Source of the DNA: a virus
Lineage: Duplodnaviria; Heunggongvirae; Uroviricota; Caudoviricetes
Direction: 5' to 3' (one strand)
Virus record (IMG/VR): IMGVR_UViG_2908567220_000006
Span: 1 to 43,859 of that record
Length of the DNA stretch: 43,859 bases
Shown here: piece by piece, positions 1-30,300 of the stretch
Layout of the letters: each line of letters opens with the position of its first letter
Numbering within the stretch: the stretch's first letter is position 1
Position numbers and translations under genes: made by a program
The notes under the pieces: generated by a model
The model's input: only the letters and a program-made list of their open reading frames with translations
Database searches by the model: none
Told to the model about the DNA's origin: nothing

Positions 1-660
1 CTATCCTTCCTGGACTTTGGTAAGCGTCAGATTTCCGCAGAACACTGCGCCGGTGTCGATGTACATCTGGTTTGCATACACCAGTGGGTGATGTGCTGGC
101 GTATGACCGAAGATGAACAAATCGGCACCGGTTATCTCCGAGACAATACCGTCCTGCGCGTCGCTAACCCGTTCACGATTCCATATCACCATTTCTTCTG
201 GTACTGGCTTATCGAATGCGTATTCGTTGTGCGGGTAGTCTGCGTGACAGATGACGACCTTCTTATTGCCGGTAACCAGTTCGATAATCATCGGGAGGTT
301 GGTAATCTTTGGCAGAAGGTATTTGAGTTGCACATCCTGCTCAGAATCAAGTTGGTGCCACCATCCACCGCCGTTTGACATCCAATGTCCGAAACTTCCG
401 CCGTTGACCAGTGCATCCAGCATCATCTGCTCATGGTTGCCACGAACAGCTCGGAACCACGGCATAGTAATCAAATCCAGGCATTCGACGTTTTCAGCGC
501 CGCGGTCAACAAGGTCACCAACGGAAATAAGTAAATCGCGCGCCGGGTCGAATGAAACTTTGTCGAGTTCGTTCATCAGCAGCGTGTAGCACCCATGCAG
601 ATCGCCGACGACGAAGATATTGCACCAGTCAGCGCCATTGATGCGTTGATATAGGTTCAT
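1..660 (-). CDS. PPP-family serine/threonine protein phosphatase (lambda NinI/PP-lambda-like)
   Basis: Translation contains metallophosphatase signatures GDLHG, GDLVDRG and GNHE. Start taken at MNLYQRING (ATG 658-660), overlapping the upstream gene stop; the ORF-track 1..780 N-terminal extension is not used. Confidence 0.85.
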
Positions 661-1307
661 GCTGCACGCTCCCGCCCCTGGTTGTCTATTGGTGACACCG
701 GAGCATTGCTGAATGCATTTGTTAATCCGCCAATATCCAACTCGTATCCAGGGTGTAGTTGCACTGCCGGGTCTTCGCACTGATTACCCCAAACATCGAA
801 GCCATGAGACGACTGGCGGGCGAACAGTTCAATGCGAGAAACATCGCCTAACAATTGCACAAGTTTTTCACGAACGACATCTGGTTTTCTTGAATGCTCA
901 AGCCGCGGTGCGGTAAATGACTGAACGATCCCTGCATTAATGCGCGGAGGTAGTTTTCCCTTTACTGCAAACAGGCAATCTTCACTATTGGCGCGAGTCA
1001 TGTGTCCCATACCCATAACCAGTTTATCTGGTTGTCGACTACCACATTTTATCCACGTGAAGCCCTTCATGGTCATCAGACGGAATCCCCAGGCTTCAAC
1101 AACTTTTAGTGCTTCGAGTGGTTGTGTTGGCACCCACCACATGGCCAACAGACAGTTTTCATCGGCCAAATCCCACACAGGAAGGCGGCAGATATCCAGC
1201 ACACTCATAACCGGATATTTAAAACCGGCACCGCGATTACCATCTGCGGCTTTGTCCCGGTATACCCAGGGTGGATCTGCATAGATTAGTGTGTATTTCT
1301 TAGTCAT
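657..1307 (-). CDS. MT-A70 family DNA N6-adenine methyltransferase
   Basis: Catalytic DPPW motif (YADPPWVY) near the N-terminus, about 216 aa; stop overlaps the phosphatase start (ATGA). Confidence 0.8.
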
Positions 1308-1599
1308 AAACCACCCCGCAACATCCTATGCCGCTATAGTCGCCACGGCGAAGGCCGTTACCTTTTGTGATACATTGGTCCCTGCGAACCGCGATCCTTG
1401 CACGCTCAACATCACCAGAAGCAACATCCATACACTGAAGCCAAAGGTGGGCGGCAATGCGGAACTGCCCTTTTTTCTCTCTTTCAATCGCGCGTTTTTC
1501 GATCTCTATCGCCGCAGGAGTAACGGCAACAACCTTTGAAGGGCTGCGCATTGAAACCTTGTTCATGTGATATTTTTCAAGTCGGCTTAACTTTCTCAC
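1300..1599 (-). CDS. hypothetical protein
   Basis: ORF in operon context with apparent GTG start; an alternative ATG (MNKVS) lies at about 1566. No recognisable motif. Confidence 0.35.
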   Translation of the reverse strand: MRKLSRLEKYHMNKVSMRSPSKVVAVTPAAIEIEKRAIEREKKGQFRIAAHLWLQCMDVASGDVERARIAVRRDQCITKGNGLRRGDYSGIGCCGVVYD

Positions 1600-1708
1600 T
1601 TAATCCAACCCTCTCTGAAAATTAATGCCAGCAGATAAAGCCATGCTGAAACAGAGGCCAGGAATAAGTACCATCCTGACCATTTGCTCCAGTGCCTTAG
1701 CAGCACAC

Positions 1709-1957
1709 TCATGCCGCGTTGCTCACGGGACGATATACACGTTGCTGAACAGGAGGTTTTTTACCCTGGAACTCTTCCGGACTTGCTGCCTGACGTTCAT
1801 CAAGCCAACGCTCAACTTCATCACGGTTCCATGCGCAGCGTTTATCGGTGATATACCAGCGTTTAGGAAATTCCCCTGCGCGCTCCATACGATCGATAGT
1901 GCTCCATGACAGTGGCACCACCGCCAGGAGTTCCTTCTTACCTAATGCACCTTTCAT
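1709..1957 (-). CDS. AlpA-family transcriptional regulator / excisionase-like protein
   Basis: 82 aa with an AlpA/Vis/Xis-like HTH pattern (SWSTIDRMERAGEFPKRWYI...WNRDEVERWL). Confidence 0.7.
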   Translation of the reverse strand: MKGALGKKELLAVVPLSWSTIDRMERAGEFPKRWYITDKRCAWNRDEVERWLDERQAASPEEFQGKKPPVQQRVYRPVSNAA

Positions 1958-2006
1958 AAATACCTCTCTTGGTTGCAGTGCGGCGCGTGTGGCGCCGCGG
2001 TGGTGG

Positions 2007-3029
2007 TTACTCGAATTCTGGACGCATATCGTTAAGCGTCATCATGAATTTTTGGTGATATTCATCACCGAGCTTTTCAGCCATGGTGTTAATCTCATTT
2101 TCAGCGCGCTTGAACATCGTTTTTGCATCTTCAGCAGATGGATCCAGGCTATTAAGTATCGCGATGATATATTCTCGAGCTTCTTCTCGTTCTGAATCTG
2201 AAATTGGCGACAGGTGTTGACGCTCATCGTCAACTACGGAATATTCACCAGTGATAACAGCTGCGTTATCTTGGCTAAGTCCAGCTTCAGCGCGCTCATC
2301 CATAACAACAGCCTTCTGCATTTCAATAGAAACAGGAAGATATTTGAATAGTCGGCGAATTACTGTTTTTTTAGCCATCTCATCGAAGTGATCAACCCAT
2401 GGGCCACTGCTACCGGCTTTGCTCAGTGCACGAACTTTCTCAATGTCTGCCCGGCTCATAACTTCAAATTGGACTCCGCCATCTTTCAGTCGTGCAACGG
2501 CGTAAACGTGCGTTAATTCTCCTCGGTCACCTGTTTCGCAAGGTAAATGCTCGAGCGTTTCTTCCAGGCCGTATGAGTAGCTGAATTTGTCGTTTGTATG
2601 TACGGTACGAGCCGAGATACTCAGGATCTGCCCAGAGCGGCGGGCAAGGTCAATCATTCCGCGATAGCCGATAATCAGCTGTGCTTCTGTAGATACGGTT
2701 TCCCATCTTCCATTTACTTTCTGGCGTTTGTCGAACGGTATCAGGTAAGCGTGTCCAAGAGCTCCGCCTGGTTCAAGACCCAATTGGGCACATTGCATAA
2801 TTGCCCCCAGGAAGCTGGCTTGGTCGCATGATGCAAGTTTTGGAACCTTTCGGATCTCTGTGGTTGCTATGCGCGCCAGACGGTCTGCTGTCATGTGCTT
2901 TGGAAGTGCCAAAGCCATCTGAGCTTTAATTTTTGGGTCTGCCAGAAGTCCGGCCAGAGTTGTTGGTTTCTCATTATGATGTGCAACTTGGTTACCGGTA
3001 GCCGCTGCCTTAAGTGCATTGATAGACAT
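2007..3029 (-). CDS. recT: RecT-family single-strand annealing recombinase
   Basis: 340 aa; position directly downstream of a YqaJ exonuclease gene; RecT-like core sequence with acidic C-terminal tail. Confidence 0.8.
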   Translation of the reverse strand: MSINALKAAATGNQVAHHNEKPTTLAGLLADPKIKAQMALALPKHMTADRLARIATTEIRKVPKLASCDQASFLGAIMQCAQLGLEPGGALGHAYLIPFDKRQKVNGRWETVSTEAQLIIGYRGMIDLARRSGQILSISARTVHTNDKFSYSYGLEETLEHLPCETGDRGELTHVYAVARLKDGGVQFEVMSRADIEKVRALSKAGSSGPWVDHFDEMAKKTVIRRLFKYLPVSIEMQKAVVMDERAEAGLSQDNAAVITGEYSVVDDERQHLSPISDSEREEAREYIIAILNSLDPSAEDAKTMFKRAENEINTMAEKLGDEYHQKFMMTLNDMRPEFE

Positions 3030-3038
3030 TTTTTCTCC

Positions 3039-3938
3039 TTACTTCATTCTGAAGACGCGTTGTGTCGTTGTTGTTTTGAATTTTTCGAATAACTCAGGGT
3101 GTACTGACTGGAATAGCTTCTGGTCGAATCTGTTGCTGATCTGAGATTTCCATGTGCAGAGCGGCTTTCCGTCCAGGGTCAGGACTGAGTGCTCTTGCAT
3201 GTACATCTTCAGCTTCTCTTCTGATATAGCTATTTCTTCTTCCAGTGATTTTCTGCGTGACTTCATGTCTCGTAGATCGTTGAATAGTGCGAGTGCCTTT
3301 CCGTCAGCCTCGATACTTGTCCCGGCATCTTTCTCAAACATCAGCGATATATCGCTTACGCTGGTAGCTTCCGGCGGGTTAAGATTTTTCACTCGGTCCC
3401 AGAAAGCGATTTCTTTTTCTAAGATTGCCTGGATAGTTTCTTCATCACGCTCAACCCGATAGATTCGGAAGTCGTCGCCACCGATAAGCACACCGAAAAC
3501 GCATACCTGTTTGTTTGTAACCATCAACCCGTGCATGGCCTGGGCCGTGTAATGCACAGGAATTGCATCTGTCTGGATTTCTCCCCATTCTTTGGCTTTG
3601 AACGGACTAACTGTTTTGATCTCAATGTTCTCGCCTGACGCTGCTTCTGCATCGATCTCAGCTGCAATAAAATCGTAATCACGGTGGATATAGCGGTTTC
3701 CGCGATGAACGATTTCCATCCCTGTTTCCTCAGAAAGCAGGTCTATTACGTATGGCTCCATACGCTGGCCACGCGTGAAAACTTTCTGCTTGCTTGGGTC
3801 TACTGGTTTGACACGTGGCTGTACCTTATCCAGATAAACCTCAAGCGGTGTGCGCCATGGGCTAATTCCAAGAATCCCTGCAACATCGCTTCCTCCGATG
3901 TATTTTGTTCTATCCATGATTCCAGCGTTCCGCATCAT
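3039..3938 (-). CDS. YqaJ-type viral recombinase exonuclease
   Basis: 299 aa; N-terminal motif KYIGGSDVAGILGISPWRTPLEVY typical of YqaJ/lambda-Exo-like nucleases; paired with RecT. Confidence 0.8.
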   Translation of the reverse strand: MMRNAGIMDRTKYIGGSDVAGILGISPWRTPLEVYLDKVQPRVKPVDPSKQKVFTRGQRMEPYVIDLLSEETGMEIVHRGNRYIHRDYDFIAAEIDAEAASGENIEIKTVSPFKAKEWGEIQTDAIPVHYTAQAMHGLMVTNKQVCVFGVLIGGDDFRIYRVERDEETIQAILEKEIAFWDRVKNLNPPEATSVSDISLMFEKDAGTSIEADGKALALFNDLRDMKSRRKSLEEEIAISEEKLKMYMQEHSVLTLDGKPLCTWKSQISNRFDQKLFQSVHPELFEKFKTTTTQRVFRMK

Positions 3939-4234
3939 GCCGCGTCCCTCTGTCCATCAAGCTGATCAGCCAGATCCCAGCGGGCGATAATTGCCATTGC
4001 CTCGCGCCGGTAGGAATCCATCAGTTCTTCGAACTCTGGACTGTCTTTAGCGGCCTCCAGTACTTCCTGGCGAACGCCTTTACCTGTTACAGCGTCGAAA
4101 GTTGAGGCTAGTTGATGAAGCCGGATGCTCTCGATCAGTTCAACTTGTCGGTCATATAGCTGTTCTGACAGGCGGTAGTCCTTGTCGAATGCCAGCATGA
4201 TTTTTTGAAGATTTTTCTGCTGATTAACGTTCAT
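3935..4234 (-). CDS. hypothetical early protein
   Basis: Start taken at MNVNQQ, which has a GGGAGGG Shine-Dalgarno 5 nt upstream; overlaps the exonuclease start. Confidence 0.5.
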   Translation of the reverse strand: MNVNQQKNLQKIMLAFDKDYRLSEQLYDRQVELIESIRLHQLASTFDAVTGKGVRQEVLEAAKDSPEFEELMDSYRREAMAIIARWDLADQLDGQRDAA

Positions 4235-4236
4235 TA

Positions 4237-4389
4237 TCAGCCCTCCCATATCTCGTTATCGTTGGCTACATCGCGAGCTTCTTTGCTGACGAAAGCCCAC
4301 TTAATGCCTTCCTGTAAGGTGCGGAACTTCCAGCTCATGAATCCGCATGCAGTAACGCAGCACCAACCGTTGATGATTTTCCACTGCAT
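4237..4389 (-). CDS. small Cys/Trp-rich hypothetical protein (50 aa)
   Basis: Own translation: MQWKIINGWCCVTACGFMSWKF...; first gene downstream of the putative leftward early promoter, the position occupied by kil/cIII-like genes in lambdoid phages. Below the ORF-track size cutoff. Confidence 0.3.
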   Translation of the reverse strand: MQWKIINGWCCVTACGFMSWKFRTLQEGIKWAFVSKEARDVANDNEIWEG

Positions 4390-4408
4390 AATTTGTTACC
4401 TCGGCTTG

Positions 4409-4485
4409 TTACCGTTGAGGTAATGATTATGCGTATTTGGTTTGGTGTCAATAGATATGAGTTAAAAAAATTACCCTTTAGGTAA
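4409..4485. promoter_or_regulatory. oL-like operator pair (TTACC-N5-GGTAA at 4409-4423 and 4471-4485) with leftward early promoter
   Basis: Two perfect copies of the 15-bp palindrome between the repressor gene 3' end and the first early-left gene. Confidence 0.55.
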
Positions 4486-4493
4486 TCAAACAG

Positions 4494-4520
4494 GCAATAA
4501 AAAAGCCGCCAGAAGGCGGC
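4494..4520 (-). terminator. intrinsic terminator downstream of repressor gene
   Basis: GCCGCC-AGAA-GGCGGC hairpin followed on the minus strand by a T-run, about 25 bp after the repressor stop. Confidence 0.5.
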
Positions 4521-4542
4521 TTACTTACTGAAAAATATGATT

Positions 4543-5127
4543 TTATTGTTTGTTTTTTTCGTTCTGGTTGATGACAAATTCAATGTAACTTTCGATCTTT
4601 GCTTTCTCGGTTTCGGGTAACAATGCGTAGCGCGAGCGGTCATAGTTGATGGTCGCAGGGTCGTGCGGGTGAATCAGTAATTCATAGCCGTGACGCCCGA
4701 ATGCGGATGCAACATTCTCCAGGGTGGAAATGGAAACGCTGACCTCATTGTTTAACAGGCGGCTGATTGTCACCTGGGAGACGCCAGATGCGCGGTGAAG
4801 TTTTCCCTGTGTTGAAAGGTCGCGGCTTTCGCTCATCCAGCGTTCCAGGTTGTGAGCCGCCAGTTGACCAATGTCGCTTGGTCCGACAGGCTGAAAACCT
4901 TCCTGAGAAAGCGAGCGATCGATATCAAGCCAGTTACGGGGTTTATTGGCGGCAGCTTCGATTTTTCGCGCAACCTGGTCGCCGATAACCTTCTTGCCAA
5001 GAGCCCAGCGGTTTACCAGATTTGCCTGAGTTCCAAGTTTTTCTGCCATCCGCGTCTGAACACCATTGAATTCACGGTCGATCAAGTCGTTGAGATTTTG
5101 CCTGCGGACGTCCTGGATACTTTTCAT
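4543..5127 (-). CDS. CI-like phage repressor with two tandem XRE-type HTH domains
   Basis: 194 aa; two HTH-like segments (GVQTRMAEKLGTQANLVNRW and LHRASGVSQVTISRLLNNE); divergent from a Cro-like gene; no S24 peptidase motif is apparent. Confidence 0.7.
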   Translation of the reverse strand: MKSIQDVRRQNLNDLIDREFNGVQTRMAEKLGTQANLVNRWALGKKVIGDQVARKIEAAANKPRNWLDIDRSLSQEGFQPVGPSDIGQLAAHNLERWMSESRDLSTQGKLHRASGVSQVTISRLLNNEVSVSISTLENVASAFGRHGYELLIHPHDPATINYDRSRYALLPETEKAKIESYIEFVINQNEKNKQ

Positions 5128-5182
5128 TTTCTGGAAAATCGCCTCATATCTGAATCAGAAGATGATTCAATTTAAAGCAATA

Positions 5183-5245
5183 TTACCCAACAGGTAAATG
5201 CACCTCATGGGTAACTATCCTTGATTTTTGTTACCTTATAGGTGA
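5183..5245. promoter_or_regulatory. oR-like operator cluster with divergent pRM-like and pR-like promoters
   Basis: Three palindrome copies in the 154-bp repressor-cro intergenic region: 5183-5197 perfect, 5200-5214 GCACC..GGTAA, 5231-5245 TTACC..GGTGA. Candidate pR: -35 TTGATT 5221-5226, -10 GAATAT 5244-5249. Confidence 0.6.
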
Positions 5246-5281
5246 ATATTTATTATCTGAAATAAATATCAGGCAATAGCT

Positions 5282-5512
5282 ATGAGCGATAACGGACATT
5301 TCGATTTCAAAAAGCACTGGCTTGCACTTACTCCGGATGAGCGTGAAGCCTTCGCACAGGAAGCCGGAACGACGAGTCACTATATCCAGACTCACTTAAC
5401 AGGTAAGCGCAAAATGCCAGGTAAGGTATTGATGGATGGGCTTTTTAAAGCCTGTAAATCAAGACAATGGCTGCGCTCAAAAGCAGAACTGGCATACTTC
5501 TTCTACTCATGA
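5282..5512 (+). CDS. Cro-like / YdaS-type small HTH regulator
   Basis: 76 aa, divergent from the repressor, transcribed from the operator region. Confidence 0.6.
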   Translation: MSDNGHFDFKKHWLALTPDEREAFAQEAGTTSHYIQTHLTGKRKMPGKVLMDGLFKACKSRQWLRSKAELAYFFYS

Positions 5513-5533
5513 TATCCAGCCACAACCCTCTGT

Positions 5534-5557
5534 AGACCGCCATCCGGCGGTCTTTTC
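5534..5557 (+). terminator. intrinsic terminator after cro (tR1-like)
   Basis: Perfect 8-bp stem AGACCGCC-ATCC-GGCGGTCT followed by TTTTC; a palindrome copy (5568-5582) lies immediately downstream. Confidence 0.6.
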
Positions 5558-5663
5558 ATATCTATTCGTACCTCAAAGGTAATAAAAAACCAAATATGGT
5601 TGATCTTTTTTTTTGTGTCAGCACAAAATAACCGTAATCCCAATACTAATAACAGGGCTTACC

Positions 5664-5864
5664 ATGGAAATCATTACACGTATTGATGCCGCAAAGCGCG
5701 GACTTAAACGCTACTACACCGGAAAACCATGTAAGCACGGACATGACAGTGAACGCTGGGTTTACAACGGACACTGTGTTGAGTGCACCATGGAATCAAA
5801 CCGTCGCATCAGGGCAGAGATTAAGCAGATCATGATTAATTCCTCCCCACAACACTCAAGCTGA
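5664..5864 (+). CDS. small putative zinc-binding protein in cII position
   Basis: Start taken at MEIITRIDAAKRG; Cys/His cluster (CKHGH...CVEC). Confidence 0.4.
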   Translation: MEIITRIDAAKRGLKRYYTGKPCKHGHDSERWVYNGHCVECTMESNRRIRAEIKQIMINSSPQHSS

Positions 5865-5879
5865 TAGCGGAGATTAATC

Positions 5880-6695
5880 ATGAGCAGACATGCAACAGAT
5901 TGGGCCTGGGAGACAGATCCAGGTAGCTCATCATTAAAGCTCATACTGCTCTCGATGGCTGACAGAGCCGATGAATATAACCTCTGCTACCCCAGCATAG
6001 AACGCCTCGTTAAAGACACTTGCCTGAATAAAAAAACCGTGCAGGCCGGGCTTATATCGCTCATGAAAATGGGGCTTATTTCAGATACCGGAGATAGAAA
6101 GGGAGCGACAAAAAGAGTGCGGGTTTTCTCTCTTAATATAACCAAAAACGGGAACATTAAAGGCAACCGGGAAGGGGGTAATGAACCCGAAAACGGTAAT
6201 GTTACCGAAAACGGGAATATACCCAAAAACGGGATGTTGAATGATCCCAAAAACGGGATGTTGAATGATCCCAAAAACGGGATCCAGAACCAGTCATATA
6301 ACCAGTCATTTAACCAAGAGAGGGAGAGCAGGACAAAAAGCGGGGATTCTGTGCCTCATGACCCCGGCGCAAACAACGCCGTGATGAATAACTTTGTTCC
6401 TCCTGGTTGGCCAGGGCAATTAGGCAAATTTGTCATGCATGAACAATGGCAACCATCAGATGACTTTCTTCGGAAAAGCTCATTGCAGGGGATCTACCTG
6501 GACAGTCTGCCAACGGCACAGGAACTTGCAGAGTTCAGAATTTACTGGATGGCTGAGGGTAAGGCATACCATCAGGCACAGTGGGAGCAGAAGCTGGCAA
6601 GGAGGCTGCAGATTAGCAGACAGAAGCAATCAACATTACCTGATAACAACGTTCCGCACTGGAACAGCCCTGAAGCATGGGAGGATTTCTTGTGA
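5880..6695 (+). CDS. replication initiator (O-like; N-terminal winged-HTH, C-terminal DnaT-like domain)
   Basis: 271 aa; Asn/Gly-rich repetitive linker encoded by iteron-like DNA repeats; directly upstream of the P-like helicase loader. Confidence 0.7.
   Translation: MSRHATDWAWETDPGSSSLKLILLSMADRADEYNLCYPSIERLVKDTCLNKKTVQAGLISLMKMGLISDTGDRKGATKRVRVFSLNITKNGNIKGNREGGNEPENGNVTENGNIPKNGMLNDPKNGMLNDPKNGIQNQSYNQSFNQERESRTKSGDSVPHDPGANNAVMNNFVPPGWPGQLGKFVMHEQWQPSDDFLRKSSLQGIYLDSLPTAQELAEFRIYWMAEGKAYHQAQWEQKLARRLQISRQKQSTLPDNNVPHWNSPEAWEDFL
6140..6285. repeat. iteron array (putative replication origin) inside initiator gene
   Basis: Six copies of CC(C/G)AAAACGGGAA-like units spaced 18-24 bp, including a perfect tandem 24-bp duplication cccaaaaacgggatgttgaatgat at 6222-6269. 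Confidence 0.55.
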
Positions 6696-14927: not shown

Positions 14928-15004
14928 TGGCGTGGCATGCAGGATTCGAACCTGCGACCAACCGCTTAGAAGGCGGTTGCTCTGTCCAGCTGAGCTAATG
15001 CCAC
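14928..15004 (-). tRNA. tRNA-Arg (anticodon UCU)
   Basis: Manual fold of the reverse complement: 7-bp acceptor stem GTGGCAT/ATGCCAC, D-arm GCTCAGCTGGACAGAGC, anticodon stem ACCGC/GCGGT with loop CTTCTAA, T-arm GCAGGTTCGAATCCTGC, discriminator G plus CCA. Acceptor stem differs from my recollection of host argU. Confidence 0.9.
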
Positions 15005-27395: not shown

Positions 27396-30300
27396 TGCCG
27401 ATATATGAACAGGATCCTAAAGAGTTGCTTGGCGAGGATATTCAGCAAATAGCAGCACCTGATGACAGTAATTTCTATATGGAAACACCTTCTTTGCTTT
27501 CTGCTGTGAACCCATTTACCAGTGATCAACGCGTTCAAAGGTCTAGACAAGCAGCATTTCGTATAGATAACACGCTGGGTAGCTTTATTGCCAGTGCTCC
27601 TTTCAGTCAGTTTGACAGGGTTGAAGGATATAACCCATTTGATAACGATGCAGCAGATATTAAAGGCTATGAAGATTTTGCAGATTCGTTTATCAACTCC
27701 GGTTCGCATGAAGAAACAATGGCAATTAAACATCGAATCGATAAGCAAAGAACAGATAGAGAATATCTATCTGAAATGGGTGGTGCTGGTACTATTTCAA
27801 GCTTAGCAATGGGAATGATAGACCCGGTTAATGTGGCTGCAATGTTCATCCCTGTAGGGGCGGTAGCGCGTGGAGGAAGTATTGCTGAGACGGCAGGGCG
27901 TTTTGCCCTGGCGAATGCTGCTGGTGGGGGAGTATCAGAAGCCGCATTACAGGCCACTCAGGAAGCTCGCTCACCGATGGAGAGCGTATCGAACGTTGTT
28001 GTTGATGCTCTCGTTGGTGGGATCCTTGGTGCTGGTGCACAGCTACTTGCTGGACCTAGCGCGCGCGAGGCAGTGGTTAACTCAGTAGGTAATCATTTGC
28101 GAGGTATGGATTCTCCTCAAAGCATTGGTGCAGCTCAGGTTTTCAATACCACACTCGATCAGGAACAGCTCGCTGGACTTGGACTTGCTAACAAAACGTT
28201 GAGTGTCACTCCTGCTGGCCGCTTGGCGCAATCACCATCTCTTGTCTCCCGTCAGATTAACCAGCAGCTTGCCGAAAATAACTATTTCTTCGCCAAAAAT
28301 GATGAGGGGTTGGCTACGTTTACGGCAGTCGAGACTAAGATTAAGCAATACGACGCCATGCTTTATAAGCAGATGGAAGCTACTCGTGATGCTTACCAGC
28401 AGTACAGCAAATCTGTCAGCGCCCGCGGCGTGAAGAGGATGAACTTTATTGATTTCAATGAAGCTGTTGGCATGGCTATGCGCCGTGGTGATCAGAGTGA
28501 TATTCCTGAGGTTTCACAAGCAGCCGCCAGAATCCGCCCCATTTTTGAGACCACAAAAGCCCGTATGCAGGAATTGGGGATCCTTCCTGAGGATATCGAT
28601 GTCGTGACGGCGAAGAGTTATCTTCCCCGCATTTATAAGTTCGATAAGATACTTTCCGACCGCACTGAATTCAGAGGGCGAATTGCCAACTGGATACAAG
28701 TGATTAGTGCCAAAGGTGCTGACAAAGCAGGTCAGCGAATTGAAAAGATAAATTCATTGCTAAAAACTGCAGAGGAATCAGCACCGCGCGCTGATGCTCT
28801 CGCTAGTGAAATCGCTGAAGCGGAGAAATGGTCTGGTAAAAAAATTCTACTCATGGAAGAACTGGATAAACGAAATAAGCTTATATCTCAGGAGACTGAC
28901 ACACAGGCGCGTCTTACAAGAATAGAAAAAGAGTTGGCCGAGACTTCATCAGAAAAACTTCAGGCAAGAATGATGAAAGAAAGCTCTGACCTTAAAACAC
29001 GCCTTGATGATATAGCGCAGGCAAAGAGTGAGCTTCCTGTCTATCAGCGCCATATGGAGTTGCTGGATAATCCACGGAAATATCGTTCTGAGCTTCGCCG
29101 ACTGCAAAAACGGGCAAATTCAACCACAAGGCTGAATGCAAGCCGCGAGCGAGCACTGAAGCAGATGGAGCCTCTATCCCGAGAGGAAGCAGAGGACGCT
29201 GCTGACGAGATCGTGAATAAAATAATAGGCGCACCTTCCGGGCTTGTACCAGCCGATATTATCCCAGAGAGACTCGTTGGTCGGGCTGGTTTCACTAAAA
29301 GCAGAACGCTGCTTATTCCTGATGAGCGTATAGAAGATTTTCTTGAATCAGATGTTAACTACATCATGGAAAGTTATCTCCGGCAGGTGGCACCAGAAAT
29401 TGAGCTGACTGCGCAGTTTGGCCGTAAAGATATGGGGGAGCAAATCCGTCAGGTTAGTGAGGAATATACCCGGCTAATAAAAGAGGCTAAAACACCTAAA
29501 CGACGTGCAGTTCTTGAGAAGCAACGGGAGGCTGATATTAGGGATATTACGGCTATGCGTGATCGACTGCTTGGTACTTACGGTGCACCTCAAGATCCAC
29601 GCAGTTTCTTTGTTCGTGCCGGGCGAGTTGCTAGGAATATTAACTTCCTCCGTTTGCTTGGTGGAATGACTGTCTCCGCTGCAACTGATCTGATGCGACC
29701 GATGATGCAGCATGGCCTGAGAAAATCTCTCGGACCAATGGTAAGCATGCTTAAAAATATGGACTCAGTGAAAATTGCAACCAGGGATTTGCGAGAAATG
29801 GCAGTTGGGCTTGATTATGTCCTGTCTACGCGTACAAAGGCTATAGCGGATCTTACTGACCCCTATAGCCGGAGAAGCGCCGCTGAGCGAGGTCTGAACT
29901 GGATGACGCAGAAATTCGGTAACTGGACGCTGATGAATCAGTGGAACAGCGCACTTAAATCATGGTCTGGGATGATAGTGCAGTCGAGGATACTTGACGC
30001 GGCTCGCCAAGTTTCTGCTGGTGGCACGCTCTCCAAAAGTGAAATGCGGAAGATGGCACAGGTCGGCATCAATGAAGATGTTCTGCGCCGAATCGGGGAG
30101 CAATTCGGGAAGCACGGAGAGGATATGGACGGGCTGTTAACCGGGCATAGTCATCTGTGGGATGACCGTTTCGCTAGAGAGATTTTCCAGTCTGCAGTGC
30201 TGAAAGATGTAGACTCAGTGATTGTAACGCCTGGCGTAGGTGATACACCGCTGTTTTTTAGTAAAGAAGGCTGGAAGATGATCACGCAGTTCAAAACGTT

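Follow-up and report, generated by a model that had tools for sequence, protein, structure and literature searches.

The gap between the recT and alpA genes of the viral DNA analysed here, a stretch of 43,859 nt referred to below as the window, holds a hairpin, H1, which on the comparative evidence is a real stem-loop held by selection as a structure of the sense-strand RNA. It probably serves as ordinary punctuation, giving the genes on either side differing expression, and we tentatively assign it, by analogy and at somewhat under even confidence, to the protective 3′ structures without a U tract that are known from the interior of Escherichia coli operons. H1 opens no long-standing question and its counterpart in Salmonella phage epsilon15 had already been annotated; the one new observation is the complementarity of its 5′ flank to codons 12–14 of alpA. 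The element stands at the junction of phage recombination genes and an AlpA-type excision/regulatory gene in prophages of many enterobacterial genera, and provides a small, portable and well-conserved example of operon punctuation. If H1 sets the ratio of the flanking gene products, it would be part of the timing of excision versus recombination functions in phages of the epsilon15/phiV10 type.

The hairpin and its setting

All genes neighbouring H1 lie on the − strand, and the + strand sequence GCGGCGC (1980–1986), GTGTG (1987–1991) and GCGCCGC (1992–1998) is therefore read in the mRNA as GCGGCGC-CACAC-GCGCCGC, with the 5′ arm at 1998–1992, the loop at 1991–1987 and the 3′ arm at 1986–1980, as taken directly from the sequence. 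The initial annotation had reported a perfect GC hairpin at 1980–2000 within a 50-bp gap. The hairpin itself is confirmed; the stem, however, occupies 1980–1998, bases 1999–2000 (GG on the + strand) being flank outside it, and the gap from the recT stop codon to the alpA ATG measures 49 nt. The stop codon (TAA, 2009–2007, − strand) doubles as a mosaic junction where homology to relatives with other recombinase genes ends. It is followed by the 8-nt 5′ flank CCACCACC (1999–2006, − strand), whose core ACCACC (2004–1999) adjoins the stem without spacer and is the proposed 5′ strand of a second helix, H2, described below. Between the end of H1 and the alpA start codon (ATG, 1955–1957, − strand) lie 22 nt that include the alpA Shine-Dalgarno sequence AAGAGAGG (1963–1970, − strand), at least 90% conserved in the alignment presented below and unpaired in the consensus structure, within the loop closed by H2.

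Pfam matches uphold the identities first given to the two flanking genes, RecT (PF03837) and Phage_AlpA (PF05930), and add a YqaJ-type exonuclease upstream and PerC and an MT-A70 methylase downstream. The operon reads gp37-gp36-exo-recT and, beyond the gap, alpA-membrane protein-PerC-methylase. It appears to start at a promoter-like site at 4451–4423, the only one found for it by a promoter scan, and to run down to position 1; on the − strand the same scan returned nothing near the recT-alpA gap. This gap is the only one in the operon that exceeds 9 nt, the other junctions overlapping or measuring at most 9 nt, and H1 therefore marks the boundary between two tightly packed gene blocks. The earlier description of a hairpin on the transcribed strand that separates the recombination genes from the alpA block thus holds good. 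Identity of the region to phiV10-like E. coli phages reaches 98% and to epsilon15 81%, both belonging to the genus Uetakevirus; the polycistronic mRNA that carries H1 is the early-left message of a phage of this type.

Folded alone, H1 has a free energy of −13.7 kcal/mol, and its probability is about 1.0 in all contexts folded. It is the most stable 25-nt local fold of the whole window (read on the + strand) and the only perfect 7-bp all-G/C hairpin within it. Dinucleotide-preserving shuffles of the window hold a mean of 0.14 such hairpins, with at least one in 12.7% of shuffles; taken alone, the single sequence is only mildly unusual against chance and not compelling. Folding z-scores around H1 (101–141 nt) range from −0.5 to −1.6 and are not significant. 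H1 is judged to be more than a chance palindrome because it is conserved, with compensatory change, across its relatives. A terminator scan made no call at H1, and an Rfam cmscan of window positions 1–6000 at E-values up to 10 gave no match overlapping 1916–2009.

Conservation of the stem

Related loci were gathered through the AlpA protein, so as not to select for the hairpin itself. They provided 66 distinct element-bearing spacers upstream of alpA which, trimmed to the stop codon, yielded 54 distinct sequences (alignment A1) from prophages of E. coli, Salmonella, Klebsiella, Enterobacter, Scandinavium, Superficieibacter and Pseudocitrobacter; many of the loci sampled are close relatives. 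RNAalifold predicts H1 from the homologue alignment. The seven core pairs of the stem are formed in 374 of 378 cells, the remaining 4 being unpaired, and sliding the 3′ partner by 1–3 columns lowers pairing to 13–68%. At pair 2, 46 sequences have C-G and 8 have U-A, a compensatory double change; pair 4 is G-C in 44, G·U in 7 and A-U in 1, representing a full route via a wobble intermediate. G·U or U·G wobbles are found at four pair positions, in 11 cells overall. They are standard only on the mRNA strand and become A·C mismatches in the antisense reading, for which the number of paired cells drops from 374 to 364 of 378. Single-sided changes in the stem are mostly sense-strand C-to-T substitutions that keep a G·U pair (11 cells versus 1); by our own count, this asymmetry would correspond to five independent events against one, which is suggestive but not decisive.

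The stem measures 7 bp in every relative, with 8 bp in one clade. The loop, by contrast, exists in 18 sequences of 3, 4 or 5 nt among the 54 distinct homologues and the spacer 3′ of the hairpin in 17 forms, whereas the ACCAC immediately 5′ of the stem is invariant in 54 of 54. The AlpA proteins of stem-bearing relatives have meanwhile diverged down to 76% identity. A constant stem, a loop free in sequence and length, and the strand asymmetry of the wobbles together argue for intrastrand pairing in the sense RNA and against a protein-binding palindrome in the DNA. The absence of a T-run, reported at the outset, extends to the whole family: in the 18 alignment columns 3′ of the stem the longest run of T is 2 in all 54 distinct homologues.

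Two features of the variable positions deserve mention. Among E. coli prophages whose AlpA is 99% identical to that of the window and whose flanking spacer is nearly identical, the loop at 1987–1991 is hypervariable (CACAC, CACGC, CACGT, CATAC and AACGC in L006–L085); the differences are mostly transitions, and the loop behaves as a local mutational hotspot. Among the window and its homologues (L089, L277), the C/A-rich 5′ flank varies in the copy number of a trinucleotide, being CACCACC in epsilon15, CCACCACC in the window and CACCACCACC in Klebsiella, which looks like CCA/ACC slippage.

Complementarity between the flank and alpA

In the window, the 9-nt sequence CACCACCGC (2005–1997) is exactly complementary to GCGGUGGUG (1924–1916), which covers alpA codons 12–14, GCG GUG GUG (1916–1924, − strand); within it, GGUGGU (1922–1917) is the proposed 3′ strand of H2. 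This relation was followed in 64 distinct sequences that begin at the stop codon and reach +66. In 63 of the 64 the codon 12–14 site is a perfect complement of the 6-mer ACCACY, and no other downstream 6-mer window shows perfect complementarity to ACCACY in any of them. The RNAalifold consensus stacks a 6-bp H2 directly on H1, the two helices enclosing alpA from its Shine-Dalgarno sequence and AUG up to codon 11. Among 22 alpA representatives with less than 97% mutual identity, the third positions of codons 11, 13, 12 and 14 rank 1, 2, 5 and 6 as the least variable of 30 four-fold sites. This conserved complementarity suggests a long-range helix stacked on H1 that would enclose the alpA ribosome-binding site, and we consider the putative H2 more likely to be real than otherwise.

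The covariation and the individual folds temper this picture. The pair at the junction of the two helices is C-G in 49 sequences, U-A in 13, U·G in 1 and C·A in 1. The 13 U-A sequences form one clade, and the covariation in H2 therefore counts as a single event. The C·A case (L279) has a hairpin of the epsilon15 type and alpA codons 11–16 close to those of the clade with GCA at codon 12, and looks like a recombinant. In the fold of the window itself, H2 lies 3.1 kcal/mol above the minimum-free-energy structure, with a probability of 2–6%; in epsilon15-type sequences its probability is about 0%, the flank pairing there with GGUG at codons 3–4. Only for Klebsiella-, Scandinavium-, L221-, L223- and L282-type sequences is H2 predicted as the minimum-free-energy fold or as one of the major species. 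A distant AlpA gene with no upstream hairpin (L092) still carries GGTGGT at the codon 12–14 site, because Val-Val is encoded there. In the same gene, a perfect Chi octamer, GCTGGTGG, is found at codons 10–13.

Distribution and mobility of the element

A 161-bp region around the element is present in 556 of 5426 complete E. coli genomes (about 10%), with a median of 1 and a maximum of 2 copies per carrier genome; E. coli APEC O1 is among the carriers. A pattern search of viral contigs for flank plus hairpin returned at least 119 stretches; among the matches listed, all but one lie in a recombinase-alpA context, the exception (L132) being a high-GC chance match. Homology to relatives with other recombinase genes stops exactly at the stop codon (window position 2010), and 17 phage records (H4–H19, including two RefSeq/GenBank duplicate pairs) match the window at 1600–2010 only. 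An identical H1 allele, for instance the one with loop CACGC, follows two differing recombinase 3′ ends, ...CCAGAATTCGAGTAA and ...GAAACATCTATGTAA (L002, L003, L004, L005, L006, L007, L089), and the element therefore travels with the alpA module. Whichever recombinase lies upstream, its stop codon is located 1–4 nt 5′ of ACCAC and 7–10 nt before H1 in all relatives. The recT-alpA spacer may serve as a joint for the swapping of recombinase modules.

A possible protective hairpin inside the operon

The reading that we tentatively prefer assigns H1 to the protection of the upstream message. An endonuclease would cut the less protected downstream mRNA, the 3′-to-5′ exonucleases PNPase and RNase II would trim back and halt at the all-G/C stem, and the exo-recT segment would outlive the alpA-distal segment. 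A single promoter would in this manner supply much annealase and exonuclease and little AlpA-type regulator or excisionase. The ACCAC(Y) flank would probably pair with GUGGU in early alpA and stack on H1; the stacked H2 would perhaps lengthen the structure that stops the exonucleases, and closure of the alpA ribosome-binding domain would lower independent initiation at alpA. That H1 holds up decay, that expression is tilted towards exo-recT and that alpA translation is restrained are our inferences; the outcome would be biologically sensible, an annealase presumably being needed in bulk and an excisionase or regulator sparingly.

The precedent comes from E. coli, where 26 of 34 operon junctions with a stabilised upstream gene end just past a stable hairpin, these 26 hairpins showing neither a U tract nor a Rho effect (PMC5927463). 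Of the 26 structures, 17 extend into the downstream ORF with enhanced wobble conservation over them, and the authors suggested that such structures have two roles, one of them being to block initiation at the neighbouring gene (PMC5927463). H1 resembles the members of this Dar and Sorek class in being a stable hairpin just past the upstream gene at the boundary of operon segments, in having no U tract after its stem, and in being conserved in relatives, with raised wobble conservation where the structure overlaps alpA. It differs from them as a phage early-operon element that moves with the downstream module and bears the invariant ACCAC flank. It is not a REP sequence.

Several of the results described above accord with a protective role. 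What stays conserved in H1 is its stability, the stem being kept and the loop left free. The structure belongs to the sense strand, has no U tract in any homologue and sits just past recT in the sole real gap of the operon, with no promoter nearby. The unique partner of the flank in 63 of 64 sequences, the consensus H2 and the wobble conservation at codons 11–14 match the extension into the downstream ORF. Other results fit less well. The element moves with alpA when the upstream recombinase is swapped, which is unexpected of a device serving the upstream gene, and an invariant ACCAC flank is more than a plain exonuclease barrier would require. H2 is weak in the window's own fold, close to absent in epsilon15 types and marked by a single clade-level covariation; its GGTGGT strand occurs in L092, where Val-Val is encoded and the hairpin is missing; and the regional folding z-scores are not significant.

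A possible translational switch

A second reading, in which H1 would be a rigid scaffold, best accounts for three things: a flank that never varies, a stop codon at a set distance and an element linked to alpA. ACCAC(Y) would pair with early alpA and close its initiation region, and a ribosome terminating on recT would cover the flank and open H2, thereby coupling the two genes; we hold this to be unlikely overall, though deserving of attention. The partner could be codons 12–14 or, in E. coli and epsilon15 types, GGUG at codons 3–4, and in a variant of the reading H1 would insulate alpA from re-initiation by recT ribosomes. The invariant ACCAC abuts the stem without a spacer and has a unique complementary partner in all but one sequence of the set; RNAalifold stacks the two helices; the wobble positions of codons 11–14 are conserved and the junction pair covaries from C-G to U-A; and H2 is the minimum-free-energy fold in Klebsiella-, Scandinavium-, L221-, L223- and L282-type sequences. 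The stop codon also lies a constant 1–4 nt from ACCAC, whichever recombinase is upstream, and this reading explains why the element travels with alpA. Against these points, the consensus leaves the Shine-Dalgarno sequence and the AUG unpaired in a loop of about 57 nt, so that inhibition of initiation is not evident; H2 has a low probability in the window and in epsilon15 and rests on one covariation event; and the Val-Val codons also explain GGUGGU (L092).

In the strict form of this reading, which appears doubtful, H1 would be the fixed half of a two-helix ribosome-sensing switch, and only a ribosome terminating on the upstream recombinase would open the alpA domain. If true, translating the recombination genes would control, in cis, the expression of an AlpA-type excisionase or regulator, and one cassette would serve whichever recombinase is swapped in at the stop codon. 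In the coat-replicase system of phage MS2, translation is coupled by long-range mRNA pairing that the upstream ribosome opens. The likeness is that a sequence beside the translated region of one cistron is complementary to the early region of its neighbour and that an upstream ribosome would melt the pairing. In contrast with MS2, the Shine-Dalgarno sequence and the AUG are here enclosed and not paired, and the putative helix of 6–9 bp is marginal in the window.

Possible pausing or attenuation

Salmonella phage epsilon15 carries a direct homologue of H1 in the same place, between RecT and the AlpA-like gp33, annotated at 30056–30073 as 'stem-loop; transcriptional pausing', the sole feature so labelled in NC_004775.2. 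The two stems differ only in that pair 2 has changed, with compensation, from C-G to U-A, and the epsilon15 loop has 4 nt, whereas the window carries the E. coli allele with the GCGGCGC stem and the 5-nt loop. The record (L001/L304) places the stem-loop feature on the + strand, although the genes on both sides and the evidence for an RNA structure point to the − strand. The label was apparently drawn from sequence alone. A literature search for the epsilon15 stem-loop near RecT found nothing useful and no experiment behind the pausing label, and the paper on the phiV10-like phage vB_EcoP_ZX5 makes no mention of AlpA, RecT, a hairpin or a terminator.

According to the label, nascent H1 would slow RNA polymerase after recT, either keeping polymerase and ribosome in synchrony or imposing partial Rho polarity on alpA and the distal genes. 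Besides the annotation, the C/A-rich and G-poor flanks (CCACCACC upstream, ACUGCAACCAA or ACUGAAAAAA downstream) speak for it, loosely recalling a rut site around a hairpin. The annotation nevertheless looks sequence-derived, the 8–12 nt that follow the stem, in which a hairpin-dependent pause site would be expected, vary among relatives, and a reading of the homologues revealed no conserved pyrimidine-then-G pause motif 10–12 nt after the stem. Pause hairpins, moreover, do not need a 7-bp all-G/C stem. Rho loading is unlikely because the gap is only 49 nt long, the alpA Shine-Dalgarno sequence is strong and early alpA is G-rich. We accordingly give nascent-hairpin pausing a modest chance at best. 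The initial annotation had offered an attenuator as one of two functions; a weaker form acting through pausing or Rho-assisted polarity may apply but gains no positive support, since it would call for a conserved spacer after the hairpin and that spacer varies.

In its intrinsic form, the attenuator proposal is not supported. H1 shares with intrinsic terminators a G/C-rich stem of similar size and energy (7 bp, all G/C, −13.7 kcal/mol) located after a stop codon. Unlike them, it lacks a U tract behind the stem, on either strand, and an A tract in front of it throughout the 54 distinct homologues; an alternative terminator/antiterminator pairing was not observed at H1. A terminator for the opposite strand is likewise rejected, the tail on that side, GGTGGTGGTTAC, being without a T run.

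Less probable readings

Two further readings were considered. In one, very improbable in our view, the element would be a palindromic protein-binding site or a conserved linker for the exchange of recombinase modules. The break of homology exactly at the adjacent stop codon and the occurrence of one hairpin allele behind two differing recombinase 3′ ends would suit a linker. A dimer site is poorly compatible with half-site spacings of 3 to 5 bp around a hypervariable centre, and the preference of single-sided changes for G·U is relevant to RNA only. A recombination linker requires identity and not intrastrand pairing, and leaves the compensatory pairs unexplained. In the other, which we rate just as low, H1 would have no function and would be a palindrome arisen by chance or by template switching, hitch-hiking with the alpA module. 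The frequency of such hairpins in the shuffled windows (at least one in 12.7% of them) and the close relationship of many loci lend it some credit, but the stem remains intact across seven enterobacterial genera in spite of diverged loops, 3′ flanks and AlpA proteins, and shows two compensatory pairs.

Cleavage of the H1 stem by RNase III, which would separate the recT and alpA messages and was the other function first suggested, is the least credible of these proposals and is effectively dismissed. Being a perfect helix between two cistrons of a phage early operon, H1 does invite comparison with T7 and lambda, in which RNase III sites are used in just such spacers. RNase III substrates in E. 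coli, however, comprise about two helical turns, approximately 20 bp. The stem of H1 offers 7 bp, or 13–14 bp with a stacked H2 broken by the junction; its loop has 3–5 nt, and in no relative does the stem grow. In NC_004775.2, the predicted RNase III sites are separate features of 37–100 nt, none of which falls on the hairpin.

The remaining candidates can be treated briefly. Programmed read-through or frameshifting at the end of recT, stimulated by H1 8 nt downstream of the stop codon, is rejected, since relatives place the hairpin 7, 8 or 10 nt beyond the stop codon and have different upstream genes, so that no extended reading frame is conserved. A lambda-type nut/boxB site is at variance with a hypervariable loop of 18 sequences, with the lack of any boxA-like sequence seen and of an Rfam match. 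REP/BIME elements are set aside on account of the single context among the matches listed and of the median of 1 and at most 2 copies per E. coli genome. On the + strand, the flank GGTGGTGG is one base off Chi, and the conserved RNA complementarity explains the flank better. An RNase E motif, GU|AUU, is located in the window 3′ of the Shine-Dalgarno sequence and ahead of the AUG; Klebsiella-type spacers (GGUAACGAUG) do not have it, and it is given no weight here.

Other features of the window

The immunity region has a strong terminator-like hairpin with a T tail on either side, at 4503–4522 (− strand) and 5534–5553 (+ strand). One of them follows the gene of a 194-aa helix-turn-helix repressor (4543–5127, − strand) and is located just upstream of the promoter-like site at 4451–4423, the presumed promoter of the early-left operon. 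The 4503–4522 hairpin also draws weak hits, below threshold, from several small-RNA models of Rfam.

Within an ORF at 5880–6695 (+ strand), a candidate replication-protein gene, three adjacent tandem-repeat arrays occupy positions 6177–6316: 18 bp repeated 3.1 times, a perfect 24-bp unit (CCCAAAAACGGGATGTTGAATGAT) repeated 2.6 times and 12 bp repeated 2.4 times. The encoded protein has NG-rich repeats at the arrays, and the arrangement resembles origin iterons in a lambda O-like gene. Finally, a tRNA-Arg gene with anticodon TCT, corresponding to the rare AGA codon, is found at 14928–15004 (− strand), between the terminase and portal regions and opposite to the structural genes.
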